A DNA stretch of 63,919 nt, the filler included, from Collodictyon triciliatum (taxonomy: Eukaryota), in NCBI GenBank assembly GCA_043381765.1. It is 8 parts of 8 records of this genome, joined end to end, with 100 filler letters (N's around TTAATTAATTAA, not from the genome) between each part and the next. Parts side by side here need not be neighbours in the genome. Positions count along the whole stretch, not along the records: positions 17,054 to 25,478 come from JBHJMP010003435.1; 7 more parts are not named here. One strand, written 5' to 3'. Positions 17,054 through 63,291 of this stretch are shown here, piece by piece. Below the pieces are notes generated by a model that saw only the letters and a program-made list of their open reading frames with translations, had not been told where the DNA came from and did no database searches. The stretch's first letter is position 1; the number at the start of each line of letters is the position of its first letter. The translations under genes were made by a program, and so were the position numbers.

Positions 17054-20000
17054 AAGGGGCCCAATCACATGACCGCTTCGGAGACATCTACGTGAAGCAG
17101 TCAAAGTAATAATTGATCATTTATAGACGTTTTTTTTTTTTTTTTGCCTTTATTTCTGTAAATATATATATATATGTATGCTGATCAATTTTTTATGATA
17201 GGAATGAGCAAGCTCTGGTTGAATACACAAAGGCCATGGAAATCCGCCAAAAGAAAGTCGGAAACGAGCATCCACTTGTCGCAACATCGTACCAGAACTA
17301 TGGTCATGTCTCTCTGGCTGGGAAAAAGTAGCATATATATCCATTTAACTGGTTTTAAATCTACTTATAATTTGAGAAATATTAATATGATTGAATCTCC
17401 AAGGTATGAAGAATCTATTGAAAACTACGAAGAGGCAAGATCAATCCTTGAAAAATCGCTGGGGGCTAAGCATGCATCTGTTGCCTCGACAATCCAGTTC
17501 ATTGCAAACGTTCATCTTGCCAGTGGAAAGTTCGGATTTCTAAATTACAGATATATACATACAACATTAATTATTTTATTTCTTTCTTTCAATTTTTTAA
17601 AATGAGTGTTGCTTTATATATTTCATTGTATGGATGCTATTTGGGGATAATTTTGCATCATATAATTCTAACTAATTATATAAATATCAAATTACTTTTA
17701 TCTTATATAGGAAAACTGAGGCCTTGTCCTCATTAAAGCAATCGCTGGATATTTTCATGTCTGCCCTGGGTGAAAATCATCCGAATGTTGTGGCCTGCTA
17801 TGAAATGATTGGAGACATCAGCCATGATTTGAAGGAGTATCTCTTTATTAATTATTATTACATATTTAATTGAAAACAATAATGTATTTACTCATATTAT
17901 CCTAGCTTCAAGGGTGCTTTGGAGGCGTATGCAAAGACGCTGGATATTCGCGCGAGAACACTGGGCGAAAAGCATGCTGATTATGCGACTTCCCTGGAGA
18001 ATGTTGGCAGAACAAACTTTGAGCTTAAAAGGTTAAATTTCTCTATTATATTAAAAAAAATTAAATATTTTGATTAACACTTCCAAAAACAATGAATATT
18101 CATTAATGTTCATGCATCTAGATTGGACCAAGTCGTGGAATACTTCCAAAAGGCAGCTGCTATCAGAAAGGAGACACACACAATCATGTCGCTGAAAGAT
18201 GGCTCACAAATTGACAACATTATCCGATTCATGAAGGATAAGAAAGAGCATGAAGCCGTCATTCAGCTTTACAAAACGCTGATTCATTTATTCAGCAAGC
18301 TTTACTCCATGGATTATCTTGGGATATGGAACAGCTGTGAGGAAATCGACAAGACTTACAAGGAACTGAAGCAGCATAACGAAGCAGTGGCATTCTGGGC
18401 TGAGATGAGAGACAGATTTGCTGATAAATTTGGATGGATTCACCCCAGTACATTAAACTCATGCAAATACTTGTCCGTTCATTCAAAGGAAATTGGAATC
18501 AACAGAGAGCCTGTCGAGTTTACAAGAGTCAAGGAATTCATCAGTGAAACTCTTGATGATGCAAAGCTGGATGAGGAATGGAATCGTGAACAAATAATTC
18601 CATTTTTATTCAGCATTGTCTACATGTCAAAGACCGATGAGAGCAAATCAAAGGCTGCATCTGATGCAATCACACTTTTGAATTTCATGAATGTTTCGTT
18701 CAGTGGAATGGATTTATCAAACATCAAAATTCCACATGCAAATCTCAGTAACTCAATCCTTGATGGTGCAAATCTCACTGGTGCCAACTTGGATGGTGTT
18801 GACTTCACGAATTCGATGCTTGGTGATTGTGTTTTTGATAATGCGAATATGAATAACGTGAAATTCGGAATTCCTTATGATAAATTGGAAGGACATACAA
18901 GTTCTGTCTATAGTGTTTGCTCTATTCAAGGACCAAATGGTGAAAATTGGCTGGCTTCTGGAAGCAAAGATAAAACAATACGTATTTGGGATGTAGCCAC
19001 AGGAAACCAAATCAAAACATTAAAAGGACATACAAGTTCTGTATATAGTGTTTGCAGTATTCAAGGACCGAATGTTGAAAGTTGGCTGGCTTCTGGAAGT
19101 GATGATAAAACAATACGTGTTTGGGATGTAGCCACAGGAAACCAAATCAAAACATTAGAAGGACATACAATGGATGTCAGGAGTGTTTGCAGTATTCAAG
19201 GGCCGAATGGTGAAATTTGGTTGGCTTCTGGAAGTGGTGATAAAACAATACGTATTTGGGATGTAGCCACAGGAAGCCAAATCAATATATTAGAAGGCCA
19301 TACAGATTGGGTCAGAAGTGTTTGCAATATTCAAGGACCGAATGATGAAAATTGGTTGGCTTCTGGAAGTGGTGATAAAACAATAATTATTTGGGATACA
19401 ACCACAGGAAGCCAAATCAAAACATTAGAAGGACATACAAATGATGTCGTGTGTGTTTGCAATATTCTAGGACCGAATGGTGAAAAGTGGCTGGCTTCTG
19501 GAAGTTGGGATAAAACAATACGTGTTTGGGATGTAGCCACAGGAAACCAAATCAATAAATTGGAAGGACATACAGAATCTGTCAAGAGTGTTTGCAGTAT
19601 TCAAGGACCGAATGGTGAAAATTGGCTGGCTTCTGGAAGTGGTGATAAAACAATAAGTATTTTGGATATATCCACAGGAAACCAAATTAAAATATTAAAA
19701 GGGCATATCAATGATGTCAATAGTGTTTGCAGTATTCAAGGACCGAATGGAGAAAATTGGTTGGCTTCTGGAAGTCGTGATAATACAATACGCATCTGGG
19801 ATGTAGCCACAGGAAACCAAACACACAGTCTGCAAAAACTAGAAGTTACCTACACTGAAGGAAAATACCTCGTCAAGAAAGAAAAGCCAGACGAAGTCAT
19901 CGCAGTATTCAACAGAACAAGTGATGCGATGAACATGATTGACACCAATAGAATCCAAGATGCAAGGACAGTCCAGATTATCGGCCCAAGAAAGCTGCAA

Positions 20001-20228
20001 GGTGGAAACATCCAAATCAGAAATGTCACGGGATTGAGTCAATACAACAAATCCCTCCTTCTTTCTATCGGTGCTGCTTCCTTTCATGCGGAATTTGCTA
20101 CTTATTGTGAGCAGGGTAAGTTCACCAAGTTCCAGGCCCAAATGATGGCTGAGTGCTATGAGAATGGATGGGGTGTTGAGAAGGACACCGAGAAAGCAGC
20201 TGAGTGGAGACAGAAAGCCTCAGCTTAA
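17054..20228 (+). CDS. TPR - pentapeptide - 7x WD40 - Sel1 protein (NLR-like candidate receptor), 5'-truncated
   Basis: TPR exons 17202-17327, 17404-17529, 17711-17836, 17906-18031 (kinesin-light-chain-type ...LGxxHPxVA...). Terminal exon 18122-20228 carries ANLSNSILDGANLTGANLDGVDFT, seven GH...WD repeats and CYENGWGVEKDTEKAAEW. Confidence 0.9.
18879..19823 (+). repeat. Seven 135-bp coding tandem repeats (45-aa WD40 units)
   Basis: GGACATACA at 18891, 19026, 19161 etc.; high nucleotide identity between units. Confidence 0.95.
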
Positions 20229-21061
20229 CAAGGTAAGTAGTATAATAAATGCATATTAATATATGTTCGTTAACTATATTCATTTTAGATGGAGAGATTC
20301 TCTGGGTTTTTTTCAAGCAGACCTCCGCTTTTTTCCCACAAGGACGCTCCATGAAATCAGAATAAAACCATAAAAATGAAAGCAAAGCTGATCGATCTGT
20401 TGAATCCTTTTTTCAATAGAATGAATGTGTATAGAAATAATGACACAATATTTTACAATATACCAGAAGAGATTTACACAAGTACAATTCAATATAAAAT
20501 AAAGAATATGGGTACATACTATATTAATAGAAAGTAGTAATAGTAATATTGAAATATGAATCTGATATTACAATAGCTGATCAGAATTTTACAACCGAAA
20601 AATATTTTAGAATAGGCGAATATAGTTAATGGATAGTGTAAATGAAAAAAGTGTATGTGTAATTGGCATTTGTGAAATTAAGGTCTATCCGGGTGATAGG
20701 ATTATTATACAAGCTCTATTTATTTTTTGTGGTCTAATAACCGTTTTTTAAAGATTTTTCATCTGGATTTAATGAATAAATTTTACAGGATGATAGCTTA
20801 ACGAGTATGTGAGTATGTGCATATTAATCTAGAGACTGATAATTGCAGCAACTGTGTGAGTTATATAGATATATTCTTTAAATAGAGCATAAATATTAAA
20901 GAAAATATCCAAAAGTTTAATGGTGACAAAAAACTCGCAAATTTCCTATTTTTTCAAATAAATCAGGGTGGTCGAATTCTGTTAAATAGAATTAAAGTGT
21001 AAGCACTAATTATATAAAAATGCTATTAAGTATAATAAATAAAAGCGAGAGTATACTAGTC

Positions 21062-21088
21062 CAATGTGAAAGCACAGCTTTCACATTG
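21062..21088. other. Perfect hairpin, 12-bp stem and 3-nt loop
   Basis: CAATGTGAAAGC-ACA-GCTTTCACATTG. Confidence 0.9.
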
Positions 21089-21154
21089 AACGTCAAATCA
21101 GCGCGCAAATCTAGTTGCGAGATTTAAGAATTATTTGATACAACTAATTATAAA

Positions 21155-24100
21155 ATGCAATTAAGAGCTCATCAAGCAGAGTGCAAGCAAAAAATCTCCG
21201 AGTTTTTTGAAAATGGGTACAACTGCAAGGGGCTTGTCAAGATGTTTTGCGGCTCGGGCAAGAGCCTCGTGATCTACGACACGCTTCTTGCCCACGGCGG
21301 AGACCTCTGCGTCGTCGTCGTTCCGTCTATCCATCTGATCACGCAATTCAAAAGAGACTATCTGCTCGACGAAACCAAAATGAGATACAATCAACAAAAA
21401 TATTCCAAAGAATTTGACATTCTGACTGTATGCTCTCTGGATGAATTGGGAGACTGCAAAGACACATTCACTACCGATGAAACAGAAATCACAGACTTTT
21501 TGTTTACCGAATACACACAAAAAGTGGTGTTGATTACATACCAGAGTCTGCCCAAATTTGTTAAAATTGTGCAAGAAAACGAAATATCGATACACCTAGT
21601 TTGCTTTGACGAGGCTCACCACATTTTGGGAATAAAGATGAAGCATCTGCTGTTTGGATACGATGACTCTGAGTTTGAGTTTCAGGAAAAATTTGATGAA
21701 GAGAGTTTGTATGAATCGACGAGTTTTTTAGATAGTGTCAAGAGGACCTTGTTTTTTACGGCGACGCCCAAGAACTCGAATGGCGTTGTGATGTACGAGG
21801 TTCCAGAGACAGTTGGATACATGCTGAATGACGAGTTTGACGAAAACAGTGAGTTTTCGGATGAACCTCATTGTGGACCGATGCTGTTCGAGTACACGCA
21901 CCGGAACGGCGTCGACGACCTGATTCTAAATGATTTCAAGGTGCGTGTCGATATGTATACAGACAACACGGACAAGAGTGTTTTTGAGGCCATCTCGAGG
22001 TCGATTCTGGAAACAGGCAACAGTCGGGTGCTTACTTTTCATTCAAAGAGCTTTGTGAGTACTGGTGAAAAGTCTAATGTCTCGACATTCAGCAAGCAGA
22101 AAAAAGAGTTTTTAGAGAGTTTCCAAAAGGTCTGTCGAAACGAGTTTCCAGAGTTGCAGAAAAAGTACAAGAAAATCAGGTTCGAGGGAATGACCAGCAA
22201 GACGAAAAACCGAATGAAAATTCTGCATGAATTTGACGAGACGCCGGACGACGAAATTTTTATTCTGTCGTCTTGCAGGACAATCAATGAAGGTGTGGAT
22301 ACAAAGCGAGCAAACATGGTTGTGTTTGTAGACGAAAAGCAGTCTTTTATTGAAATCACGCAAAATATTGGGAGGGTCTGTCGAAAACAAGAAAAGTTGT
22401 CTACAATTGTGATTCCATGTTATGTGGATGTAACAAAGTACGCCAATTGTGAGACGGACGATGACAGAGACATCGTGATTCGGCAGGAGATGGCAAAGGG
22501 CGGAAACTTTAATGGAATTCTGAATGTGCTGAGTGCCCTGAGACAGGAAGACCCCTACATTTTTGAGCTGTGTCTAAAGTATCCAGAAGAGTACACGGAG
22601 ACAGAAATTCGTAGCAATCTAAAAAGAAACGGGCTTGAATTGCTGGACAAAGAGTATACGCCAGCAGAGTTGTTTTGTAATTACGGATGCGAGTATGATG
22701 AAAAAAAGTCGGAAGAGAGTAATTTCAGGGACCTGCAACAGGTGATAAAGAAAAATGTGCAGGTCATCAACAATTCAGTTTTGGAACAAGATTTGTATTT
22801 GGAAAGTCCAGAGTGTAACGAAACGGAGGTTATATATAAAACGGAGACAGGATACAAAAAAACTAGAAATAAAACAAATGGTGTAAGGAGGATAGAAAAA
22901 CCAAACCGGAATATGAAAATCAATGTGCATACGAATGACGAAATTAAGGTGTTGTGGAAGATGGTATCGGATATTTCGATACAGAAAAAGGTTTTTGGAG
23001 GGTTCATAGAGTGTGAGGTAAAGAATTTGGAAACAAGTGAGGATAGATGGATGGAGACACTAGACAATGTATCAAAATATATAGATGAGAATGGCAAGAG
23101 ACCTAGTTCAAAAAGTAGGAATAAAGAAGAAAAAAGGATGGGTTCATGGGTAAAAAATCAACAGACAAATTATAAAAAAAAAGTATTTTTAATGAAGAAT
23201 TCAAGTATCAGAAAAATGTGGGAATCTTTTTTAAAAAAATATTCGAAACACTTTTTATCTGGGAAAGAAATATGGATGCAGAAATTGGAGCAAGTGAAGC
23301 AGTACATCAATCAAAACAAAAAGACGCCAAGTGCTGCTGATAAAAATCCAGAAGTCAAAACTTTGGGATACTGGGTTTCAGATCAAAAAAAAAATTATGA
23401 AAAAAATGAGAATATAATGAGAGAGCCCGAAATCCGCAAACTGTGGGAGGAATTTAGGCAAGACTATTCAATATTGTCCAATACAGAAATATGGATGCAG
23501 AAATTGGAGCAAGTCAAGCAGTACATCAATCAAAACAAAAAGACGCCAAGTGCTGCTGATAAAAATCCAGAAGTCAAAACTTTGGCAATGTGGATTGGTA
23601 CTCAAAAAAAAATTATGAAAAAAATGAGAATATAATGAGAGAGCCCGAAATCCGCAAACTGTGGGAGGAATTCATGCAAGAGTTTTCAATGTACCTTTTG
23701 TCCAATACAGAAATATGGATGCAGAAATTGGAGCAAGTGAAGCAGTACATCAATCAAAACAAAAAGACGCCTAGTGCTGGTGATAAAAACCCAGAAATCA
23801 AAAGTTTGGGACAATGGATTCAAAACCAAAAAAATGGATATGAAAAAAATGAGAATATAATGAGAGAGCCCGAAATCCGCAAACTGTGGGAGGAATTTAA
23901 GATAGAGTACCTTGACGAGAAAAAGCCGGCACGAAAATCTACAAAAATAGCGCCAACAGAACTCAAAGAAAAATCAGAAACGGAACAGGAAAAAGCGAAA
24001 AGAAAAGTGTCGCAGTACCAGGAGCTCTGCAAAAAGATGGCGACGCAGCACTCGCAAACAACGAGCGAGCAGTTTGCGAAGAATCCTGGGCAGTGGCACG

Positions 24101-24579
24101 AGTACCACGATGCGCGCGACTTTTCGTTCGAGGGTTATGTAGAGCAAGATGAGATACCAGTCAACAAGATCATAAGGTACCTGCAGAGCAAGGAAAAGAG
24201 GAGGTTGAATATATTGGATTTGGGATGTGGCAGAAACAAGATCAAAACATTTTTTGAGGGGAATCGTAATTTTAATATAACGGGCTATGACCATGTTTCA
24301 TATAATGGGTCGATAGCGTGCGACATATCGGAGCTTCCGGAGGACAATGAGTCGGTGAGTATATGTATTTTTAGCCAGAGCCTGATGGGTAGCAACTGGC
24401 AGAGTTATATAAAGGAGGCGAAGCGGGTGCTTACTTATAACGGAGAGATGATAATTAGCGAGAGTGTGGAACGGTACAATGTGGTAAAAGAGACAGTAGT
24501 TGAACTCGGATTTACAATTTTGAGAGAAGAATATGAGCCGACGAATCGATGGTTTTATATATACGGAATAAGTAATTAG
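21155..24579 (+). CDS. SF2 (ResIII/Type ISP-like) helicase + 4 helicase-associated (HA) repeats + RRP8-like SAM methyltransferase; ~1141 aa if one frameshift near 23604-23612 is corrected
   Basis: Helicase motifs LRAHQ, MFCGSGKS, VPSIHLITQ, TYQS, DEAHH, TATP, INEGVD, QNIGRVCRK. HA repeats W..KLEQVKQYI.....PS........LG.W...Q. MTase ILDLGCG, ACDISELP, IFSQSLMGSN, EAKRVL. ORFs 21155..23635 and 23590..24579 join in an A9 run that is A10 in the sister repeat. Confidence 0.88.
23267..23897 (+). repeat. Three near-identical ~220-bp coding repeats (HA domains)
   Basis: GAAATATGGATGCAGAAATTGGAGCAAGT at 23267, 23486 and 23710. Confidence 0.95.
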
Positions 24580-24959
24580 TAAGTGGATAAATATTTAGAG
24601 TATTCTTGTAAAACAAGATATGTAACCAAGTTATAATCTTTTTTATTAAAATGAATAGTCTCAAACCACTGTATTTGTTTGACGTGTTCATTGATGTTTG
24701 GTGTCAAGATTTTGTCAAAGTTATTAATAACCTTAGCAATAAAAACGTAGTAAGTAGCAATTTTATAAGCGTTTTGGTCTAATAAATGATAGTCTTTATT
24801 GTAAATAAGTTTTGATTCTTCAAAAGTTTCTCTTATGGCAGTTTGAAATATAGTTTCATTTGGTTCGAAACTGCCTTTTGGAATGGACCATTTCAAACTT
24901 CTGTCGTCTAAAATCAATAAAAATTTAGAGCAATCTATACAATAAATTTGGACTTTCCG
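24576..24959 (-). pseudogene. Nudix hydrolase ORF with no ATG start (possibly 5'-decayed)
   Basis: Intact Nudix box GSFEPNETIFQTAIRETFEES preceded by KWSIPKG. The frame extends upstream as RKVQIYCIDCSKFLLIL to a TAA at 24960-24962, with no Met. Confidence 0.75.
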
Positions 24960-25156
24960 TTACGTGGTGTAAATTGTAAAACGTGAAACGTGAGTTGTAA
25001 AACGTAAAACGTAAAACGTGAGTTGTGTGAATAATGTGCCAAAATTTTTTACGCTTGGGTGGTACAAAAAATGTCCACTTACTATTTTAAGCTTCAGAAT
25101 ACCGTACAAAACATTCAGAGAGTACAAAGCACACTAAGCATACACAAAGCATCTCA

Positions 25157-25478
25157 CCCGAAAAAAATAAGAATGCGGGTTGTGAGAAAAGTCGATCTTC
25201 GCCCAAAAAAAAGAGAATGCGGGCTGTGAGAAAAGTCGATCTTCGCCCGACAAAATAAGAATGCGGGCTGTGAGAAAAGTCGATCTTCGCCCAAAAAAAA
25301 GAGAATGCGCGTTGTGAGAAAAGTCGATCTTCGCCCGAAAAAATGGGAATGCGGGTTGTGTGAAAAGTCGATCTCCGATCTTCGCCCGAAAAAAAGAGAA
25401 TGCGCGTTGTGAGAAAAGTCGATCTTCGCCCGACAAAATAAGAATGCGGGTTGTGAGAATAGTCGATCTTCGATCTTC
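25157..25478. repeat. 44-bp tandem repeat array, ~7 copies, runs into the contig end
   Basis: Unit ~GCCCGAAAAAAAGAGAATGCGGGTTGTGAGAAAAGTCGATCTTC with point variants and two 7-nt GATCT(T/C)C duplications. Confidence 0.95.
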
Positions 25479-25578
25479 NNNNNNNNNNNNNNNNNNNNNN
25501 NNNNNNNNNNNNNNNNNNNNNNTTAATTAATTAANNNNNNNNNNNNNNNNNNNNNNNNNNNNNNNNNNNNNNNNNNNN

Positions 25579-25769
25579 ATAAAAAATAGAATAAAAAATA
25601 GAATAAAAAATAGAATAAAAAATAGAATAAAAAATAGAATAAAAAATAGAATAAAAATAGAATAAAAAATAGAATAAAAAATAGAATAAAAAATAGAATA
25701 AAAAATAGAATAAAAAATAGAATAAAAAATAGAATAAAAAATAGAATAAAAAATAGAATAAAAAATAGA
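25579..25769. repeat. (ATAAAAAATAGA)n simple repeat
   Basis: Direct reading. Confidence 0.95.
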
Positions 25770-25817
25770 AGAAAGAGAAGAAAGAAGCAGGAGATGTGTG
25801 GCCGAGAAAACATTTAC

Positions 25818-27959: not shown

Positions 27960-28995
27960 NNNNNNNNNNNNNNNNNNNNNNNNNNNNNNNNNNNNNNNNN
28001 NNNNNNNNNNNNNNNNNNNNNNNNNNNNNNNNNNNNNNNNNNNNNNNNNNNNNNNNNNNNNNNNNNNNNNNNNNNNNNNNNNNNNNNNNNNNNNNNNNNN
28101 NNNNNNNNNNNNNNNNNNNNNNNNNNNNNNNNNNNNNNNNNNNNNNNNNNNNNNNNNNNNNNNNNNNNNNNNNNNNNNNNNNNNNNNNNNNNNNNNNNNN
28201 NNNNNNNNNNNNNNNNNNNNNNNNNNNNNNNNNNNNNNNNNNNNNNNNNNNNNNNNNNNNNNNNNNNNNNNNNNNNNNNNNNNNNNNNNNNNNNNNNNNN
28301 NNNNNNNNNNNNNNNNNNNNNNNNNNNNNNNNNNNNNNNNNNNNNNNNNNNNNNNNNNNNNNNNNNNNNNNNNNNNNNNNNNNNNNNNNNNNNNNNNNNN
28401 NNNNNNNNNNNNNNNNNNNNNNNNNNNNNNNNNNNNNNNNNNNNNNNNNNNNNNNNNNNNNNNNNNNNNNNNNNNNNNNNNNNNNNNNNNNNNNNNNNNN
28501 NNNNNNNNNNNNNNNNNNNNNNNNNNNNNNNNNNNNNNNNNNNNNNNNNNNNNNNNNNNNNNNNNNNNNNNNNNNNNNNNNNNNNNNNNNNNNNNNNNNN
28601 NNNNNNNNNNNNNNNNNNNNNNNNNNNNNNNNNNNNNNNNNNNNNNNNNNNNNNNNNNNNNNNNNNNNNNNNNNNNNNNNNNNNNNNNNNNNNNNNNNNN
28701 NNNNNNNNNNNNNNNNNNNNNNNNNNNNNNNNNNNNNNNNNNNNNNNNNNNNNNNNNNNNNNNNNNNNNNNNNNNNNNNNNNNNNNNNNNNNNNNNNNNN
28801 NNNNNNNNNNNNNNNNNNNNNNNNNNNNNNNNNNNNNNNNNNNNNNNNNNNNNNNNNNNNNNNNNNNNNNNNNNNNNNNNNNNNNNNNNNNTGCGAAAAA
28901 TTATGCATACAATTATCAATATGATTTTATTATTATTATTACTATTATTATTTACAAAGTAAAATCTGAAACACAGTTTTATATCAAGGAAAAGG

Positions 28996-33985: not shown

Positions 33986-34086
33986 ANNNNNNNNNNNNNN
34001 NNNNNNNNNNNNNNNNNNNNNNNNNNNNNNTTAATTAATTAANNNNNNNNNNNNNNNNNNNNNNNNNNNNNNNNNNNNNNNNNNNN

Positions 34087-35305: not shown

Positions 35306-38445
<3,140 letters not shown>

Positions 38446-42507: not shown

Positions 42508-42607
42508 NNNNNNNNNNNNNNNNNNNNNNNNNNNNNNNNNNNNNNNNNNNNTTAATTAATTAANNNNNNNNNNNNNNNNNNNNNNNNNNNNNNNNNNNNN
42601 NNNNNNN

Positions 42608-45778: not shown

Positions 45779-47435
45779 ATGGGTTCAGAATAGTGAGTAT
45801 AGACTTCTGGACACCAATATTTTTTCCCCTTTTGAAAGGTATGACATGATGACGAAAGTAACTTTTTTTTTGGGTTTGGGTTTGGTTTTTGGGTTTGGTT
45901 TTGGTTTTGAAGCGACTATCTTTTCAAGTTACTTTTGATCGGTGACACCGGAGTCGGAAAGTCATGTATTCTGGTTCGATTTGCTGTGAGTTTTCTGTAG
46001 CATTTTATCAACCTTGAATTCCGTTTCATGTTCCCCGGCATAAGGGACTTTGAAGTCTATTTTTTTTAACGTTACAGTAAGCTTACAAGCCAAACCTTCA
46101 TTATGTTCAGGACTTTTCTCTTACCTTCGTATACTCATTTCTAATTATTGCTTGTGAATAAGTAAACTATTTACCCAATTTATTTTTATTTCGGCCGCAG
46201 GATGAAAAGTTCAACGAGACATATGTTTCAACTATCGGTGTTGACTTTGTAAATTTCTCTTTTCAATTACAACGCTTTTGTAATAGTATTTCTATACAAA
46301 ATAATGCACTATATCACCATTTCATTTGGTTTTAAATAGTTTAGTATATTCTAATTATGTGATTAGAAAATCAGGACCGTAGAAATCGAGGGAAAAACCA
46401 TCAAGCTCCAGATTGTACCTATTTTTTGAACACTTTTTTTCTTCCATTATTGAAAAATCAGTGGTTGATGTATTTTTTTATGTTATTAAACGATTTTTGC
46501 TTCAAAATATGATGGAAATTTTCATGTAGTTTTACATTACTCATTCTTTTATTTATATAACATGATTGAAACCCTCTTGTAAGTATGATTCCAGACATAC
46601 AAGGGAAAAAGAGAAGAAGATTCCAAACACACATAAACATCATAGTGGGACACTGCAGGTCAGGAGCGCTTCCGTACAATCACAACAAGCTACTATCGCG
46701 GCGCGCACGGAATCATCCTTGTCTACGACATCACCGAAAGCACCACATTCGAAGGGTTGCGCCAATGGCTGAAGGAAATCGAGAGCTACGCGAGCGAAAA
46801 TGTGGAGCGACTTATTGTGGGGAATAAATGCGATCTCTTGGACAAGAGGAAGGTCACCTTTGAAGAGGCCAAGGTAAGTATCGTGTTCAATTTGGTGTTT
46901 TCCCAATTATAATGAAATTTGCTGCTCTTTGAGAGAGTGTGGTCGCTTGAGGAGATTAATATGCATGAAAATGAGTCATCAACATTAGGGTCTTGTCTTG
47001 AACATATCCCCCTTCTATTAGCTGTAGTGATGCAATGTTAACATGTTACCTCATAGAAATTTGCCGACGAAGTAAGAATCCAGCTCCTTGAAACATCGGC
47101 AAAGAATTCAACCAACGTGGAGCAAGCTTTCCTGACCATGGCTGCGAATGTACTGCGAAGGTGCATCTCTCGTTTTTATATATTTTATTTCATTAACTTT
47201 GTCCAATTCACAATTACACTCTGCTTCTGGATATAGCTCAAAACTCAGGGACACAATTCTTAAAATACATACCACACATACTCTCGTCCCAGCGTCTTTT
47301 TACTCCTTTTTTAAAAACTTCTTTTAATTGTCCAACTGAAATAGAGTCGCCAACCCGGTCGCTAGCGTGAGCAACAGTGGGACAGTTCGTGTCGATACTC
47401 AAGGAAAAAATATCAAAAAGTCTAAATGTTGCTGA
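45779..47435 (+). CDS. RAB1: Rab1-family small GTPase, 7 exons
   Basis: [83 protein letters not shown]...GNKCD...|...ETSAK...|...KKSKCC-TGA. Confidence 0.96.
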
Positions 47436-51022: not shown

Positions 51023-51896
51023 NNNNNNNNNNNNNNNNNNNNNNNNNNNNNNNNNNNNNNNNNNNNTTAATTAATTAANNNNNNNNNNNNNNNNNNNNNN
51101 NNNNNNNNNNNNNNNNNNNNNNTTTTTTTTGTTTTTTTGTTTTTTTGTTTTTTTGTTTTTTGTTTTTTGTTTTTTATTGGTTTTGTTATTTGTTATTTTT
51201 TGGAGCCAGTTTTGGACTTCGGTAGACACATCCTAAGAATCAAAAGAATATACAAAAGAAACCGATAAATGAAGAGAAAAAAAACTCAACGAAAGGAGCA
51301 ACACCCGTGGTGGCTGCGTTGTGGCCGTTTGGCATGGAGACAGTATCGCGGCAGAAAACGCCAAAATCCTGCGACTGCCTGAATACTAAATCCGCCACCC
51401 AGAAACCGTTCTCTTTAAGGCATTCGCGAAGTAGAAATATACGTTTGATACACTTAATGTGAAAGCTTCTGAACTCGGATGATAGGTGTTTCGATGGGAG
51501 GAGCAGGCCGCGCCTTCATGTGTGCATAGATGGCAAATGTTTCTGGCGCGAAGAGAGCGATTGCGCCAGACATAGAGCTTCTCTCTCTTTCAGGCAAAAC
51601 ATATCACACAATCACAAAAGCGAAAACAAGAGAAATTATTTGCGCAATCCATTTGACATCTCCATTTTGCAAATAATATATTCCTATTGGCAGATTTTCA
51701 ATTTATGTTATGATAAATCCTATTAAGAAAGTGAATACGCGAAAAGTCAGGGTGGTATATTTCAGCACACACAGCATCCAAAGTAGATCAATCTGAAAAT
51801 ATTGTTGGTAGATATCTGGGCACTAAACAAGAGACTATAAGCTTTTATTTGTTCAGAAAATCAGTATTCGCCTGAATTAAGCAACCGACTCGCTGT

Positions 51897-54800
51897 TTAA
51901 CGACAAGGGCCCAGGATTCCACGAACCACTCCCTCTGTCTTCACACTGTGGAGATGAGTTATGGGTATGAGATATGTAAAAGGTGAAGATATTCGTGGAT
52001 GATACAGCCTCAGCAATGAAAGCATGTTAATGTCCGAAGCCTGTTGTTGTTAAGAGGATGTAAAACATCAAAAGAAAAAAAATCAACTTAGTAAAACTAG
52101 CCTTCTGAAGCAGAGGTGTATAGTAAGTTGATGCAAACTCCGGCATGCCACACAAAAAGAATGGAAACTCTTTTTGGGTGAAATTCGGTATTTCGTCGAT
52201 TCGTTCGGTCAGTGTGTTCCATGATATGGTGGTGGTGAGTTCATTTAGATTGAAGAATATTATTCCAATAAAGATGAGGATTCCGCTTGTGACATGAAAC
52301 CTTTCAAATAATAAAAATACAAGTAAGTATACTCTTGACATAAAAACGGTTAGGAGACGAAGTACGCAAAAAAGAAAATGCAAAATGTATCCCCATAAGC
52401 AACATGACTCACCAATGGATTTTCTCCTGAAACTCAAAGTCGATAAGGCCGTACTTGTCGAAGGTCATAACAGAAACAGGTATAGTGAACAGCGACAGAA
52501 GCACAAGCAGAGTACTGGATAGGTGCAAGTGGGGGAGAACATAGACCAGCACCTCATTCACAAGACTCGTCACAACATACACTATTAAGGGTTTCCATAC
52601 TGGAAAAATATAAATAAATATATCAGCAGTAGATTATCGGCTATGAATAAAATTGATGGTGTCGTACCGCCATCACAGGTATTAGAGTAAGATTCAAAAT
52701 CTTCAGCGCCTGAAGAGTTGACGATACAATTTAATCCGTTAGAAATCAAGTCGCCTATCTCACTGGATGACCTTTCTCCGAAGCCAGGCAAATTTGTGAC
52801 GAAACAAAAGGCCAGAATGGCCAATACTTTAACAGTGTTGATATATAGGTGAAACTGCCACTTATTACCATCCTTTAGAGAATCAAAAAAGAGTTTGCAT
52901 ATTAGAGCGTTGAATGCCTTTGAAAAAAAAAAAAACTGGGACTACCTTTTTCAGTGCGACAACTTGTTTGATGACAGATGATGCGATAATGGGAAAACAT
53001 GATGATAGGAATATAAGCGTGTAGATTATGTCTTTGTGGTCTCTATCCTGGCGATTAAAAAATCAAATGGATGTTACTTGAGCGACATAATACATATACT
53101 TTAGTAATTTTGCTGTAGGCTAAATATTATAAATCATGGTTTTACATGCATATAAATAAATATGTCAAGAAATGCACCTCACTCTCAGGCATCCACATTC
53201 CTGATGAGACGATTGCTATTAAAGAGCCCAAAAATATTACTGCAGAGCCTATGATGAACTCCATGGAACATCTGTCATGAGGGGTAAAAAAAAAAATCAT
53301 TTAAAACTCATAAAGTAGGCTCGATGTAACTGTCATTATGTTCAGGCACCTTCTCCTAGGAGCTGCACACAATAATACTGTGCATAATGGCACAATAATC
53401 TGCAGTAAAAAAAAAAATAATTATTTGATGAATTTTTTTAAATGTTAAGATTTCATGCACAAAGCTTATGGGATAATGACTCTCCATGATATGCTTTGGG
53501 AACGGGAAAAAAAGAAAAAAACATTGGAAAATAAAAGGGTTTTATACCGGGTAAATAACAACTTGAGTCGAGCCTGGAGTCCCCACATTCCCAGCAAATA
53601 GACACAAAATGGAAATTGCATCCAGTATTCCCAGGATGATGTACGATAACTTTGACCTCATTACTCTGATTGGGGTCCAGTTAAGACCCCAGTCAATAAT
53701 CCATGCCATAGAATAAGTCGGAAGCTATAATCGTTTGTATGATCAAGAATTTGAGAACCATAGAGTCAAACTGTTTGGTTATTATAGTAATCATAATTAT
53801 AAAGGCAGCTATGGTGCAGTGATATTAAATAAAATGTAAGGAAAAATATCAACCAGAGGCTCTATTACTGACGCCGTGCTGTGTGGATTATCGTAATCAT
53901 CATGGCTTTCAGGATATACCCGAGTGAGAATTGCGGTGATTCCCAGAGAAAAGCACGATAATGCGACCCAGAGCGATGAGATTAGCAATGCAATAGGATA
54001 CCAATAGTCCGGCGCGTAATTGGACAATTGTTTAAAGGCGAATCGATTGGCCACAGAATTTGTAAGAAAAAACAGGAATATAAACCAGCGAAAGACATAG
54101 CGCATGACGGAAACCTTCCACGATCTGTGTAGAGTCTCTTCGGGCAACAGTCGGTAATTCCTCGAGTCGTACAAGCTATTGGACAAAGAGTAGAATGAAC
54201 CTATAGAAATGTTATCAAAGTCGGGATTTGCACAAGATTCTGAGTTGAGTGAGCCTGATGTCATCAGCGACGGTGCAGTCTTATGCTCTGGTGGAAATAG
54301 AAACGGCGACTGATTCGAGTCATGATGTGCATTCTGAGTAGTGCTTTGTTCGCCATAGTACGAGTCTCGGAGCCGGGCATTGTCGTCTGGCGAATTGTGA
54401 TGTCGTTAGTGCATGGTTAGAACTGATAGATAAAATGAAGTCGAAAAAAAAAATCAATCGATCTAGAATTATTAAAATTTCAATAATGTCTCTGGCGCAT
54501 TTATCAGCCCTTACAAATGATGCGATTGGGGAGGCTGCTAGAAGCCGAGTTCATCTGGGATTCGCCATGGTGGACGAATATGTCTGGATTGAACTTGCGC
54601 AACTTAGGAGAGCGACCGGGAGGGCGTTTGATGCGAATAGGCGATCGCAGAGAAGTACTCGCTGCAGGGGCAATAAATCCACTCGAGTATGAGCTGCCAG
54701 CACCGCCCAAAGGCCCAGAAGGAACCCCGCCAGTTGAAGCCGAGTGCATGGCGCTATTTTCGCTTGGGAAGCTGGGTGTGGAGCTTGTGTTTACCAGACT

Positions 54801-55295
54801 GGAGTGGCTGTTTGCGGACGGTTGTGAGGAAGTGTTGATCTGGGTCGGGGTTTGATCGATCTCTGGTCTCCGATCGCCCCTGCGCTGCCTTCTGAGTACA
54901 GGCGAGTATGAGTCGAATCCTGAGTCGTGGGGGAGAGAGCTGCTTGCCTGGGATGCGGCTGTGCCGAGGTTGAAGAATCGACGTGTCATCACCGGGCGGG
55001 AAACGGCGCCTGCTTTGCCTTGCTGAGTGCGGTTTGTTTGAAGCGCAACTCCGGGAAGGCGAGGCGATCGCACAGTCAGGATCTTCTCCTCGATGGCCTC
55101 GTCGTACGGGCACGAAGTCTCCTGCAGAAAGTCGACGTCGTCCGAATCGCTGTCTGAATCGGAGAGTTCTTCCACGGCTTGCTGCACAAAGACATAGGAG
55201 CCGGCCAAAGGCATGGACGAGGCGATTCCGCTGTTGGGATCGAGAGGCGTGGGATCGAATCCGCGTTGGTAAGTTTCGGGTGTGGCCTTCTTCAT
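51897..55295 (-). CDS. CRT-like (chloroquine-resistance-transporter family, DMT superfamily) transporter with long Ser/Pro-rich N-terminus; 3' end uncertain
   Basis: NSVANRFAFKQLSNYAPDYWY; TPGSTQVVI; IIVPLCTVLL; IFLSSCFPIIASSVIKQ; Cys-pair loop IGDLISNGLNCIVN...NTCDG; SLFTIPVSV; GILIFIGIIFFN. Confidence 0.72.
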
Positions 55296-56695
55296 TCTGG
55301 CGTGGGTCTTTGGTGGTGTGCTTGGGATTTTGGATCGGCGGTGTTTTGTCTGGCTTGGTCTGTGTGCGGAGAGGTAGACGCGATCGTGAGACGTTGCGGT
55401 GGGGAAGCGGAGGAAAAGAGGAGGAATGAGGTAGATCGCAATGTCTGTGTGGTTGTGGTTGGGCGTTGTGGCTGGTGTGATTGGGCGTCTGTAACGTGGT
55501 AAGAAAGGCTTCTTGGCGGGTGTGTGGCGTGTGATCGTTTTGAGCGATGATACAATGACTTACTCTATATATGCATTGAACTGCAGTTTATCTCTATTAT
55601 TAATTTGTGCATTTAGCATTGTTGCATCGATATTTGTGCTATATTATGCAACGTTAGTTAAATTCCATATTTGTCTTGCAGTGTATGGCATGAAGAAGCT
55701 CATCGGCCTTCTCGATTCCTGCGTGAAAAAACGCATTTTGTTCTTTTATGTGTCGCGCTGATATGTGTCTGTGTCCTGTCTGCTGAGACGAAGCGATGTC
55801 GTGATCGTTTTTTTTTTGTCTTAAGAAGCTTAGGGGTATCATTGGTACAGAGTTTAATTATGATACATTTAATGGTGGAATGGATGCAAACATTCTTCAT
55901 GCTTTCATGAATTCATTTTTTTTTTTATTCAGGGGCTTAAGGGTGCAGGAGATAAACATACCATCTCAGCGTCATCCGACGGTAACATGGCTGAGCACTT
56001 TATTTTGGTCTAAGATCAGAAAGTCGTTGAAATTCCAGTCCTCAGAACATCATGCAAATCATAAATAAGTAAATGAATAAGTTTATCAAACAACAATCAT
56101 CAAAACAAAAAACCGAAAAAAAAAGATAGCGAAAAACTCCACAGCTTAAGAGAGAGTGAAATGAATCACACGTCCACACATTAGATGCTATCTTAACAGA
56201 TTACTTGGCGAGATGGACACACCAAACCGTGTTGCACGAGCGATTAGGAATAAAATCTTCGACGGGTTTCCCGCTTGCTATTTTGTCTCACACCCGAAAA
56301 CTCTGCTGCAAACGCGTTTCAGAAGCGCAAAGGGAAGCACACTGCTATAAAAGGTATGATTGAATAATTGACGGGCACAGAATTCTCTCATCCTGTTGTG
56401 GGCGCTAATCGAAGCTATTTTAGCTCATGTCGATGCCAGCAGCCAAACAGGCGCTAAGGCAACGTCTGCTTCGAGACAAGCTGCTACGTGCAGCACCACC
56501 TCGTCCAAGACCTGCCCATCTGTCCCCTTACATATGAGCATGTTCACGTATTACTTTTATATTAAGATATCCTTTTCCTTTCCTTATGACGCCACATTTA
56601 TAAACGCGTCCACAACCTCCGTGTTGCCATCAGAAGGTCCGTTGTCCTGGCGCTGCCTCACTGACTTTTTTTTATTATCCCAGTTTTTGTTCTTG

Positions 56696-59516: not shown

Positions 59517-60057
59517 CTTGCATGAGAGATATANNNNNNNNNNNNNNNNNNNNNNNNNNNNNNNNNNNNNNNNNNNNTTAATTAATTAANNNNNNNNNNN
59601 NNNNNNNNNNNNNNNNNNNNNNNNNNNNNNNNNGACTCCGAAGTTGGTCAGTTTTCAAACAATTCGTAATATTCAGCCTTTAGTTTTTTTTTTTTTTGAA
59701 AAATAAAATAAAACAACTCACAGAATATACCACTTTCATCTATCTATTTATTATTTTAAAATAAAAATAAAAAAGAGAAGAAAACGTCTGCATTGAACGA
59801 AAAATCCAACCAAATAATATTGTTCGTGTGTCTGTGAATATGTAAGATGCCCATGGTCATTATCGTCTTGCATTCTTCTCCATCTAGGAGGCCAAAACAG
59901 CGCTGTTCGCCTGGATTTCACACTACCATCCTCATCGTACGCCACGATGTTACTTCGAGAGATTTGCAAGCGCTCTACAAGTCTTTCCTCGCAAGTCTCC
60001 ATGGCAAAGTCTGGCGCAGAGTCTTCTAATCACCCTGCTGACTCTTAAGCACCAAGC

Positions 60058-60517: not shown

Positions 60518-63291
60518 ATGCGAATGCAGCAAGCAGGCCGAAAGGCAGTCACAGGAAAGGGGATGAGCAGCCGCGCTGAAAATCAAGACATGAAGGACGT
60601 TCTTGGGGAGCCACTTGCAGAGGGCCTCTCGGACTTGCTGCAAGGAAAGAAGAACGAAGGAGCAGAAATACACGCCTTTCCTGATCTTGACTCTGCTGAG
60701 CCCACTCCGCCTTTGCCGTCCTATCTGCGGATGCGCCGTCGGTCTGTTGTCTGCAGCGAAACAGTAGACCCCAGTTTGTATGTGGATACCACTGGTACTG
60801 CAAAGGGTTTGTAGTACTTGACTAATTTGACTCTTTATGGGTTTATGCTATCCTGTATATATCTTATATATATTTATATTTTTTATTTCAGAAAAAAGAG
60901 GGCTTGATCTCGAGTCAGATCTGATCGGAACAAAGATTGCCAGCGGGCCCGTGACCCCAAAATCTTTTGAGGAGTCTGCTACTATACGCAGGGTCATTCG
61001 CAAAAATATCCTAATGTCACACTTGGACGATCTTCAGATACAGGCTTTAGTGGATGCAATGTTTCTTGTTTGTTGCGAGCCACAACAAGGGGTCATCAAA
61101 CAAGGTAGATGCGATTATTCGCTTTGTAATTAAACCATCACCTAATATTTCCAAGAAGATATAGTATTAGTATAGTGCTCATTGTACATAATTAAGAAAA
61201 TATTACTTGAAATCTCTGTAATTTTCTTTTAATAATCGGAATGCCTGGCTGGTATTCTCTGGTTGATACTTTTGTTTTGTTTTGTTTTGTTTTGTGACGT
61301 TTCTATTCGCTCCACTCTTTGATAAAGGTGAGGATGGAGACAACTTCTACATCATTTCACAGGGTCTATTCCACATTTTCGTCCAAAGAGAAGATGATCC
61401 GTATCCTGGAAAACTTGTATTCGTTGGGAATCCTGGAGACAGCTTTGGTGAACTTGCCTTGATGTACAACTGCCCTAGGGCTGCGACTGTCATTGTATAT
61501 TTTACATCATCGATTTCATTTGTTTTCAATAGTATCCAGCCTATATCATGTGTATATATTATATCCATGCATCGATTTGTAAAGAAAAATAACGTAGACT
61601 ATCAATTTAGTCTCAATGCGAATCAAAACTTTGGGCCATCGACCGCATTACCTTTAGAAATATAGTTGTACATTCAACTGCCAAGAAAATGAGAACATAT
61701 GTTAGTTTCCTTGAGAAAGTTCCGATTATGGGTCTGTTCTGTTTTCAGAATTTTTGTTCTCCCACACAACAAACCTCAAAGCCTTTTCATCTCGATCACC
61801 TCGTATATTTCTGGCTTTCCCTAAGTCTTTTATTTCGCGTATTAGCACCTTTGAATAAGTATGAAAAAATCAAAGTTGCCGACGCCCTTGAATCCATTTC
61901 ATTCGAAGATAAAACAAAAATCATCACCCAGGGAGACCCTGGCGACGCTTTCTACATTCTAGAAGAGGTAACTTTAAATATGAATCCTTTTGATTGTATG
62001 GATTCTTGCTAAAATGAGTGATATATATATATAAAACTAAACGAAAGCAACCAATCCATACGGAATGACAGGGAGAGGCCACTGTCTATCGTGACGGAGG
62101 AGAGCAAAGCGACCCTGTCGAATTAAAGCGTTTAAGCGTGGGGGACTACTTTGGAGAAATGTCCTTGCTTACAGATAAACCTCGTGCAGCTAATGTGGAG
62201 AGTATCGGGTATTGCCGAGTGCTTCGGTTGGACCGTGAAGCTTTCCTGCGCCTGCTGGGTCCGTGCGAAGATATTATGAAGACAAACATTACGTATTATC
62301 GACGCATCTACGAAACATTTCTGGAGGAGGTCGAGCTCCTTGGTGAGTCAATACATGTCACAAAGAACAAAAACAAAAAACGTAGCAATAAAATAGGGAT
62401 GCGCAAAAATACAAACAATGAACGAATATGTAAACAGAAAAGAAGTTAAAAAAAAAAAACAAACAAACATAAAGGAGAAATGATTGGGAGTTTACATCAA
62501 ACATAAATATTCATTCACTCCTACTTTTTTTTTTTTTTTGGTTTATTCAGTGTGGTTAAAGTTATGCCATTAAGGATTACCCTTTTTATGCTTATGGGGC
62601 CTTTTTTTTTTTTTATTGTATCTGACCAATACATTATTTGATGCTGATACACAATAAATCAAATGAAGCATCTATCACACGTGAAGAACGAGCTGCCGTT
62701 GCTGATGCACTAGAAACACATATGTACTCTGATGGAGAAGCGGTCGTTACGGAAGGTGATGTTGGAGACCGTTTCTACATCGTTGTTGAGGTAACCATCG
62801 AAAATCACTTTCGCAATTATTATAAATGAGCGAGTTAAATGCATCTACCAATGATGCGTGGATATAGAGGAGATAAATTAAAGAGGCAACATTTTATCTT
62901 TTTTTTTTTTAAACAAAGATATCACTACCAATTTTCTCCCTTTTTTTTTCTTATATGTTTTCTTTCCTATATATTTTTTTTCAATCATGCATTTGGGACA
63001 CAGGGAAATGCATCGGCCATTAAATCATCCGCAGAAGGCAGCGTCGTCGTGAAGGACTACGTCAAAGGCGACTACTTTGGGGAGGTCGCGCTGCTGACCA
63101 ACCAGCCGAGGAAGGCGACTGTCCGAGCCAAAGGTCCTCTCAAGTGCGCCACGCTCTCCACAGACGACTTCAACAAGTTGCTCGGTCCGTGCGGGCCCGT
63201 CGAGAAGGTTCTGAAGCGCAACATGCAACATTACCAGTCTGTCATCCGCGACCAGACGCTCGACTCGTATTTGGGACAGTCCTCTGCCTAG
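60518..63291 (+). CDS. PKAR: cAMP-dependent protein kinase regulatory subunit with three cNMP-binding domains, 8 exons
   Basis: Inhibitor site RRRSVVCSE; phosphate-binding cassettes [51 protein letters not shown] ends at 63291. Confidence 0.9.

Follow-up and report, generated by a model that had tools for sequence, protein, structure and literature searches.

A putative giant-virus gene linking a Type ISP-like ATPase motor to an RRP8-type methyltransferase in an assembly of Collodictyon triciliatum

Introduction

The window analyzed in this study, a stretch of 63,919 nucleotides (nt) from the Collodictyon triciliatum assembly GCA_043381765.1, contains two overlapping open reading frames (ORFs) at 21155-24579 of the plus strand. 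The first resembles the superfamily 2 (SF2) ATPase motor of a restriction enzyme, and the second resembles a ribosomal RNA (rRNA) methyltransferase of the RRP8/nucleomethylin type. The original prediction, made from the sequence alone, regarded them as a helicase fused to a methylase through expanding HA repeats. The locus raises the questions of whether the two ORFs form a single gene, to which group of organisms such a gene belongs, and what an enzyme of this construction would methylate. The analyses below indicate a single reading frame interrupted once, membership in a large motor-HA-methylase family of giant viruses (Nucleocytoviricota), and, more tentatively, RNA as the substrate.

Results

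A single reading frame interrupted in the HA array

ORF1 (21155-23635, plus strand) encodes 826 amino acids comprising the motor, a middle domain, and the HA repeats as far as the break, and ORF2 (23590-24579, plus strand) encodes 329 amino acids comprising the last part of the third HA repeat, all of the fourth, a linker, and the methyltransferase. All the motifs on which the original prediction was built were found in the translations: KGLVKMFCGSGKS, VVPSIHLITQ, VCS, TTD, TYQS, DEAH, TATP, LNDFKV, EGVD, and QNIGRVCRK in ORF1, and FAKNPGQWHEYH, PVNKII, DLGCG, ACDISELP, IFSQSLMGSN, and EAKRVL in ORF2. The domains it had expected were also recovered by Pfam, with ResIII (E = 9.2e-13, residues 1-206), Helicase_C (E = 1.7e-9), and HA (E = 3e-17) in ORF1, and Methyltransf_8 (E = 3.7e-28) and HA (E = 1.7e-6) in ORF2; Foldseek was run on models of both proteins. 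NCBIfam models gave nothing near their cut-offs.

The frame changes in a run of nine A at 23604-23612 (plus strand). The same run in the preceding repeat copy (23385-23394) has ten A, and the last two HA units are spaced by 224 nt, one nucleotide short of 75 codons. The protein ahead of the A-run ends with ...KTLAMWIGTQKK, and beyond the run the other frame gives NYEKNENIMREPEIRKLWEEF, which matches the preceding unit exactly. The A-run, the unit spacing, and the identity of the frame-shifted continuation to the preceding unit thus indicate that ORF1 and ORF2 are one reading frame interrupted once, with no second break within 1,141 codons. In the 361-amino-acid fragment P0126, which is 96% identical over the methylase region, the two visible HA units are read through unbroken. 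Every invariant column is also kept in the window copy, both the 61 in the alignment of ORF1 and the 12 in that of ORF2.

An extra A behind 23603 was found in contigs of all four metagenome runs examined, which belong to four studies and whose contigs were placed on 17100-25400. It accounted for a depth of 40.4 of 62.3 in run X1 (three contigs), 72.5 of 169.8 in X2 (three contigs), 44.9 of 98.7 in X9 (three contigs), and 9.44 of 19 in X10 (one contig). The remaining depth in all four runs was without the extra A, and part of it may be misplaced because the repeat units are so alike. The shorter run may be either an assembly error or a real allele.

Stand-alone methylase entries of 180-330 amino acids were also present in other assemblies, on contigs of 20-43 kb (P0139, P0148, P0151, P0155, P0178, and P0184). 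Two of them, P0148 and P0155, open on the last part of an HA repeat (MKEQE..LWEEF), which marks them as break products too; in P0139 and P0151, different residues stand ahead of the linker. Breaks close to the HA array seem not to be confined to this assembly, and could reflect either an assembly artefact or real slippage on A-runs.

The motor and the middle domain

The motor occupies residues 1-480 (21155-22594, plus strand), contains the motifs GSGKS, DEAH, TATP, and QNIGRVCR, and was modelled mostly with a predicted local distance difference test (pLDDT) score of 80-93. The middle domain that follows (residues 481-625; 22595-23029, plus strand) is a family-specific mixture of helices and strands matching no Pfam family, and residues 595-626 were modelled with low confidence. 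The AlphaFold model of ORF1 as a whole had a pLDDT of 80.3.

ORF1 alone had no match among the sequences of the Protein Data Bank (PDB). A family profile of 32 members, made from a full-length alignment of ORF1 with 31 homologues, matched two restriction-modification enzymes of Type ISP, LlaGI (5ffj, E = 1.9e-22) and LlaBIII (4xqk, E = 5.8e-22), followed at a distance by XPBII (8.6e-10), UvsW (1.5e-5), and RAD25 (2e-5). Comparison of folds also put the two Type ISP enzymes first. Foldseek placed the motor nearest to LlaBIII (2.5e-19 and 5.7e-17) and LlaGI (5.6e-15), ahead of RadD (3.8e-13), and VIA-align superposed residues 1-618 of the model on residues 176-710 of the LlaBIII chain (Z = 27.2, root-mean-square deviation [rmsd] 2.9, 412 residues), ahead of LlaGI (Z = 26.6), XPB in TFIIH (22.7), and other SF2 enzymes (about 20-22). 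The structural alignment with the Type ISP chain stops at chain residue 710-712. The sole PADLOC match was REase_MTase_IIG (E = 1.4e-14) over profile positions 167-617 of 1646, which is the region behind the N-terminal nuclease of this restriction-methylase model. By profile, fold, and PADLOC alike, the N-terminal part of the protein is predicted to be an SF2 ATPase motor homologous to that of Type ISP enzymes, as had been proposed from its motifs. The Walker A, DEAH, TATP, and QxxGRxxR motifs were invariant across the 32 sequences.

The absence of a nuclease N-terminal to the helicase, also part of the proposal, was borne out: ResIII begins at residue 1, only nine codons separate the ATG from the opening of the stop-to-stop frame at 21128, and the consensus of the homologues starts at the same place as ORF1.

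The methyltransferase

Behind the HA array, a basic linker rich in Lys and Glu (23905-23991, plus strand; isoelectric point [pI] 9.6) leads into the methyltransferase (23992-24579, plus strand), which carries DLGCG as its motif I. This domain scored 99.3 bits against Methyltransf_8 (PF05148), for which the cut-off is 27, and fell below the cut-offs of the generic models Methyltransf_11 (20.2 against 21.2) and Methyltransf_31 (24 against 27). Among PDB sequences, human nucleomethylin (2zfu) was the sole match to ORF2 (E = 4.2e-13; E = 1.7e-27 with the family profile). The ORF2 model (pLDDT 88.5) was also closest in fold to 2zfu, with a Foldseek E-value of 5e-14, a template modelling (TM) score of 0.75-0.78 on the target, and an rmsd of 2.0-2.4, and the next match was the small-molecule N-methylase 5ufm (E = 2.2e-9). 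In the ESM Atlas, where helicase-bearing clusters were left out of the comparison, the nearest clusters were all Methyltransf_8 or 'Ribosomal RNA-processing protein 8', mostly eukaryotic, with scores of 0.93-0.97; Bmt2 and type-11 methylases trailed at 0.86.

A DNA methylase was also searched for. The pattern [NDS]PP[YFWH] did not occur in the read-through protein made with X at the break, and the Pfam scan contained no N6_Mtase family at E <= 0.01. Pfam found no further family C-terminal to the methylase, and the last strand of the methylase fold is also the end of the protein. The proposed lack of an NPPY or DPPY motif was thus upheld, and sequence, fold, and Atlas comparisons all grouped the domain with RRP8/nucleomethylin, not with DNA N6-adenine or N4-cytosine methylases or with type-11 enzymes.

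Within motif I, residues D210, G212, C213, and G214 were invariant in the ORF2 alignment. According to PMC3553958, mutation of G209 in motif I of yeast Rrp8 abolishes or strongly reduces binding of S-adenosylmethionine (SAM) and lowers N1-methyladenine at position 645 of 25S rRNA, and N1 of adenine in rRNA is the only substrate described there for the RRP8 family. Yeast G209 presumably corresponds to the glycines of DLGCG. The C-terminus is accordingly best described as a predicted SAM-dependent methyltransferase of the RRP8/nucleomethylin type, and the ATPase and SAM-binding motifs are all intact.

The HA array

The HA array (23030-23904, plus strand) consists of four repeats of 73-75 codons, the number also obtained with a purpose-built hidden Markov model (HMM). 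An older copy, 61% identical, is followed by three nearly identical units starting at 23270, 23489, and 23713, which are 83-95% identical in DNA and form a tandem array of 2.9 copies at 23266-23897 with 89% matches. The HA family (PF03457, cut-off 28.4 bits) scored 63.1 bits over two stretches of ORF1 and 28.7 bits in ORF2. The array is basic (pI 9.4, net charge +13), whereas the motor and the methylase are acidic. Nothing credible was found for it among PDB sequences, where the best match had an E-value of 0.052.

The four copies found here compare with zero to 10 among the 120 best homologues, most often six or seven. This variation in copy number supports the description of the repeats as expanding. 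Length variants were also seen within the metagenome runs: part of the contigs in all four carry a 6-nt insertion (TACTTT) behind 23473, and a one-base loss and gain compensate each other at 23333 and 23337, so that the variants at 23473 and at 23333-23337 are in-frame length variants of the HA repeats.

Distribution of the family

Of 6611 candidates with lengths of 454-1446 amino acids, a search with ORF1 returned 724 at E <= 0.001. The best matches were mostly 1100-1440 amino acids long and shared 46-55% identity over 99-100% of ORF1. In the 120 best of the 724, an HMM of the methylase domain found this domain behind the motor in 93. In IMG/VR, an alignment-based scan confirmed 80 of 202 pattern matches, giving 74 loci, many of them named GVMAG. 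The motor and the methylase lay in one stop-to-stop frame at 54 of these loci, and at none of the 74 was the methylase a separate plus-strand ORF, among the plus-strand frames of at least 150 amino acids that were searched. The other 20 comprised seven loci cut by the contig end, five distant helicases of about 430 amino acids, and eight complete proteins without a methylase. The homologues thus agree with the proposed fusion, and what is split in the window is usually one gene elsewhere.

Several observations place the family in giant viruses. Two ESM Atlas clusters, of 92 and 89 members, contain PF05148 in 99% of their members, and the latter cluster is labelled Nucleocytoviricota. The neighbourhoods of 18 viral loci (71 ORFs) are dense and of giant-virus type, with a poly(A) polymerase catalytic subunit, PCNA, the minor capsid protein P2, a TBP-like protein, and kinases; no recurrent partner was found beside the gene among these ORFs. 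The family is also present in G002, a complete virus genome of 283 kb with inverted terminal repeats. Prokaryotic species genomes yielded three loci in 185,579, all on contigs of metagenome-assembled genomes (MAGs) and two of them on contigs under 4 kb. The window gene is a member of a large giant-virus motor-HA-methylase family. Peptide patterns detected no close relatives of it in IMG/VR or in the metagenome contigs of the Joint Genome Institute (JGI).

The original prediction had further proposed an undescribed system, which stands in part. No publication on the motor-HA-methylase fusion was found, in a literature coverage without most subscription journals and with supplements unopened. 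The architecture, on the other hand, is already abundant in public giant-virus data and visible in public annotation: six of the 120 best homologues carry the JGI label 'ribosomal RNA-processing protein 8', and many more are named 'superfamily II DNA or RNA helicase'. What is new is the uncharacterised combination, not its discovery here.

C-terminal variants

The methylase is missing from 27 of the 120 best homologues. Seven of these, of 680-793 amino acids, were excluded, and the other 20 were scanned for other domains. Four of the 20 (P0014, P0028, P0034, and P0068) carry an HNH_2 endonuclease above cut-off at the C-terminus. The same domain is found at the methylase position of viral locus L001 (7983-11474, E = 4.6e-11), and a weak match to it, under the cut-off, occurs in L039. 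In four further viral loci (L005, L006, L007, and L062), the HA-like repeats are degenerate and no enzyme domain could be recognised. The HNH and effector-less forms share the motor, the middle domain, and the HA repeats with the methylase form, and L001 and L062 are 44% identical over about 800 residues. In G002, the one complete virus genome examined, two paralogues that are 35% identical include one with the methylase and one without an effector; a methylase/HNH pair is absent from this genome. The HNH and effector-less relatives show that the motor and HA repeats form a modular platform, of which the methylase is the commonest of several C-terminal forms.

Genomic context

The gene lies on a contig of 8,425 nt (17054-25478) that is a single piece, with an N44-TTAATTAATTAA-N44 spacer at either end. 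Seven such identical spacers (44 N, TTAATTAATTAA, and 44 N) divide the window at 8431-8530, 16954-17053, 25479-25578, 33987-34086, 42508-42607, 51023-51122, and 59534-59633, leaving pieces of 8408-8430 nt and a last piece of 4286 nt. Many of the piece ends are simple repeats, either microsatellites or poly-T. The window looks like a set of size-sorted contigs joined by a six-frame stop linker. Adjacency across the spacers consequently carries no meaning, which also holds for the gene and the eukaryotic genes on other pieces.

Two neighbouring ORFs share the contig with the fusion gene. Upstream, a 701-amino-acid ORF (18123-20228, plus strand) has seven WD40 repeats according to Pfam. Seven 135-nt units of 45 codons, 81-87% identical, were seen in this ORF at 18745-19854, and their number varies, with metagenome contig joints that skip 826 nt (from 19140 to 19967) or go back by 534 nt. 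Downstream, a NUDIX ORF of 113 amino acids (24576-24917, minus strand; Pfam E = 3e-9) stands tail to tail with the methylase, their two stops overlapping by 4 nt. The methylase and the NUDIX ORF are likewise adjacent in a contig of run X10 (976 nt, spanning 23862-24835, with 53 differences), and a word-based search detected no homologue of the NUDIX ORF. The contig also bears a possible TPR fragment, and at 24968-25472 a 28-nt duplicate and a 44-nt tandem repeat (six copies of a 97-nt register).

Metagenome contigs matched parts of this contig, among them its non-coding spacer, without differences over 20450-20895 (X1), 20502-20994 (X10), and 20338-20558 (X2). The source sample may be among these three runs. 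An exact 25-nt pattern from the upstream spacer had zero matches in metagenome contigs. No terminal repeats were found flanking the gene block when insertion boundaries were looked for. The motif AAAATTGA, which we take to be the mimivirus-type promoter motif, matched the window 12 times against 16 expected by chance, and no match lay just upstream of the ATG. When 1256 ORFs of the 74 viral loci were compared with the window by tblastn, matches were confined to 21-24.6 kb, the WD40 repeats, and a low-complexity stretch at 48.8 kb; this query set, of which only one ORF matched the WD40 repeats, is limited and gives weak proof of absence.

The other pieces contain exon-sized fragments of eukaryotic genes at 2506-2793, 4232-4655, 36724-37438, 46646-46909, and 61267-63288, among them a La domain, a LARP1 HEAT region, an aldehyde dehydrogenase, a Ras-family GTPase, and cyclic-nucleotide-binding (cNMP-binding) domains. 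Further features of these pieces are a 12-nt AT-rich microsatellite at 25579-25812, in the piece next to that of the gene, a run of 932 N within one piece (27960-28891), which represents either a scaffold gap or a withheld stretch, and a GC-rich island at 54001-56000 (GC content 0.488 against 0.32-0.40 elsewhere), in which a stop-to-stop frame of 351 amino acids (54507-55559, minus strand) matches no Pfam family.

Discussion

Comparison with known systems

The closest solved relative of the motor is that of the Type ISP enzymes, which also resemble the fusion in being a single chain with the motor N-terminal to a methyltransferase. PMC4666363 and PMC4872093 give the order of a Type ISP enzyme as Mrr nuclease, SF2 ATPase, coupler, N6-adenine methylase, and target-recognition domain. 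The giant-virus fusion differs from this order in having no Mrr-family nuclease, a Methyltransf_8 domain instead of an N6-adenine DNA methylase with an NPPY-type motif, and no C-terminal target-recognition domain, and its HA array appears to lie where a coupler would be expected. Type ISP enzymes are also bacterial, whereas the fusion family is found in giant viruses.

With RRP8/nucleomethylin (yeast Rrp8 and human NML, 2zfu), the fusion shares the catalytic domain, including its N-terminal helical extension and the motif I glycines. RRP8 is a stand-alone protein, whereas the fusion has the motor and the HA repeats in place of the substrate-side N-terminus; the fused form is seen in the window and, among the 120 best homologues, in 93. 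PMC11082032 and PMC3553958 describe RRP8 as nucleolar, and the latter describes it as methylating A645 of 25S rRNA. Other HA-domain proteins (PF03457) resemble the fusion in having repeats above cut-off after a helicase; the fusion is distinguished by a fast-changing tandem array between the motor and the methylase.

A proposed mechanism and its alternatives

The homologies of the parts point in two directions, as the motor and the HA array suggest duplex DNA as a track and the catalytic domain suggests RRP8-type base methylation. In the mechanism that we tentatively prefer, the motor, aided by the basic HA array, would load on duplex nucleic acid and move along it at the expense of ATP. By homology, the nucleic acid tracked would be DNA, and the movement would carry the tethered methyltransferase to its substrate. 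The reaction, judged from the relatives of the catalytic domain, would be base methylation of the RRP8 kind, at N1 of adenine, on RNA, and the target may be the large-subunit rRNA of the host or, alternatively, RNA that leaves the tracked template. The original prediction had likewise cast the protein as a translocase-guided methylase that may modify host rRNA or write m1A-type marks, with the HA array as a putative determinant of target specificity. We hold this motor-delivered methylation of RNA to be a plausible account, at somewhat less than an even chance, and favour RNA over DNA as the substrate.

Several observations weigh against RNA. The nearest solved relatives of the motor all act on DNA (LlaGI and LlaBIII, XPB, RadD, FANCM, and Mfd), and the presence of an HNH nuclease where the methylase would be fits a platform that applies its effector to the tracked DNA. 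Eukaryotic hosts already possess RRP8, so that a viral copy of an rRNA methylase would meet no obvious need. According to its title, the one structural paper on HA (Mills 2013) also has the domain binding DNA. The same protein may then methylate DNA, leaving an epigenetic, anti-restriction, or restriction-like mark on viral or host DNA, with the HNH relatives as its cutting counterparts. For this reading speak the closeness of the motor to double-stranded DNA translocases and to the PADLOC restriction-methylase model, the basic charge of the HA array, the DNA binding named in the title of the HA paper, and the replacement of the methylase by HNH_2 in P0014, P0028, P0034, P0068, and L001. However, the protein contains no DNA-methylase motif or Pfam family, its nearest methylase relatives are all of the RRP8 type, and N1-methyladenine, when present in DNA, prevents base pairing and counts as damage; G002, moreover, combines the methylase with an effector-less form and not with an HNH form. 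We consider DNA a possible but rather unlikely substrate, and its methylation the main rival to the account preferred here. A substrate that is neither, such that the methylase-like domain acts on a protein or small molecule or serves as a SAM-binding regulatory module, is improbable. Class I Rossmann methyltransferases do switch substrates easily, and the next-best folds include small-molecule methylases such as 5ufm (E = 2.2e-9), but the E-value of nucleomethylin lies five orders of magnitude ahead of that of the next fold, and the attachment of the domain to a motor for nucleic acids and to an array of basic repeats argues for a nucleic-acid substrate. The homology of the motor could also suggest a genuine restriction-modification enzyme of Type ISP (or Type IIG). 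This candidate was rejected, and we give it hardly any credence: there is neither a nuclease nor room for one, the NPPY-type motif, the N6_Mtase family, and a target-recognition domain after the methylase are all lacking, and the three loci found in prokaryotic species genomes are all on MAG contigs.

Other alternatives concern the state of the gene and not its substrate. This copy may be a free virus gene, an integrated one, or an intact gene that a sequencing error makes look broken. That the helicase and the methylase are two separate abutting genes is suggested by the two ORFs of the window and by the six stand-alone methylase entries. It is nevertheless very unlikely, as the two are fused in most of the best homologues (93 of 120) and of the IMG/VR loci (54 of 74), the break falls inside a repeat unit and not between domains, and P0148 and P0155 start with an HA-repeat tail and would hence be break products. 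A less remote alternative, compatible with either substrate, is that the frameshift is real and this copy a functionless relic, left on a piece of giant-virus DNA that may or may not be integrated. The broken frame, the share of contig depth without the extra A in all four runs, the lack of any other giant-virus gene in the window among those of the 1256 viral ORFs, and the lack of a AAAATTGA motif upstream of the ATG are consistent with it. Against it stand the single break in 1,141 codons, the retention of all 61 and all 12 invariant columns, the presence of the longer run in contigs of all four runs, and the nature of the site itself, since a run of nine or ten A is a classic place for sequencing and assembly errors. 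We regard a relic as unlikely, though worth keeping in mind.

Beyond these, a more speculative account, to which we assign a low probability, would treat the whole family as a restriction-like toolkit of giant viruses built on one DNA-tracking motor. In such a toolkit, the methylase form may write a mark on the Watson-Crick face, for example N1-methyladenine, into DNA exposed by the motor, and this mark could be either a self-mark or a weapon that stalls the replication of the host or of rivals. The HNH form would cut DNA that lacks or bears the mark, and the slippage-prone A-runs of the HA array would turn the methylase on and off.

Implications

For annotation, the two ORFs are best entered as a single viral-type gene with one interruption, lying on a short contig with an unproven connection to the eukaryotic contigs. 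The family to which it is assigned is large and has clear catalytic motifs, and its natural variants (with methylase, with HNH, and without effector) could be used as experimental controls, which makes the family directly testable. If the fusion is active, giant viruses would possess a widespread ATP-driven enzyme in which a restriction-type motor delivers an rRNA-type base methylase. Such an enzyme would amount either to a virus-directed editing of the host translation apparatus or to a DNA mark of a kind new for viruses.

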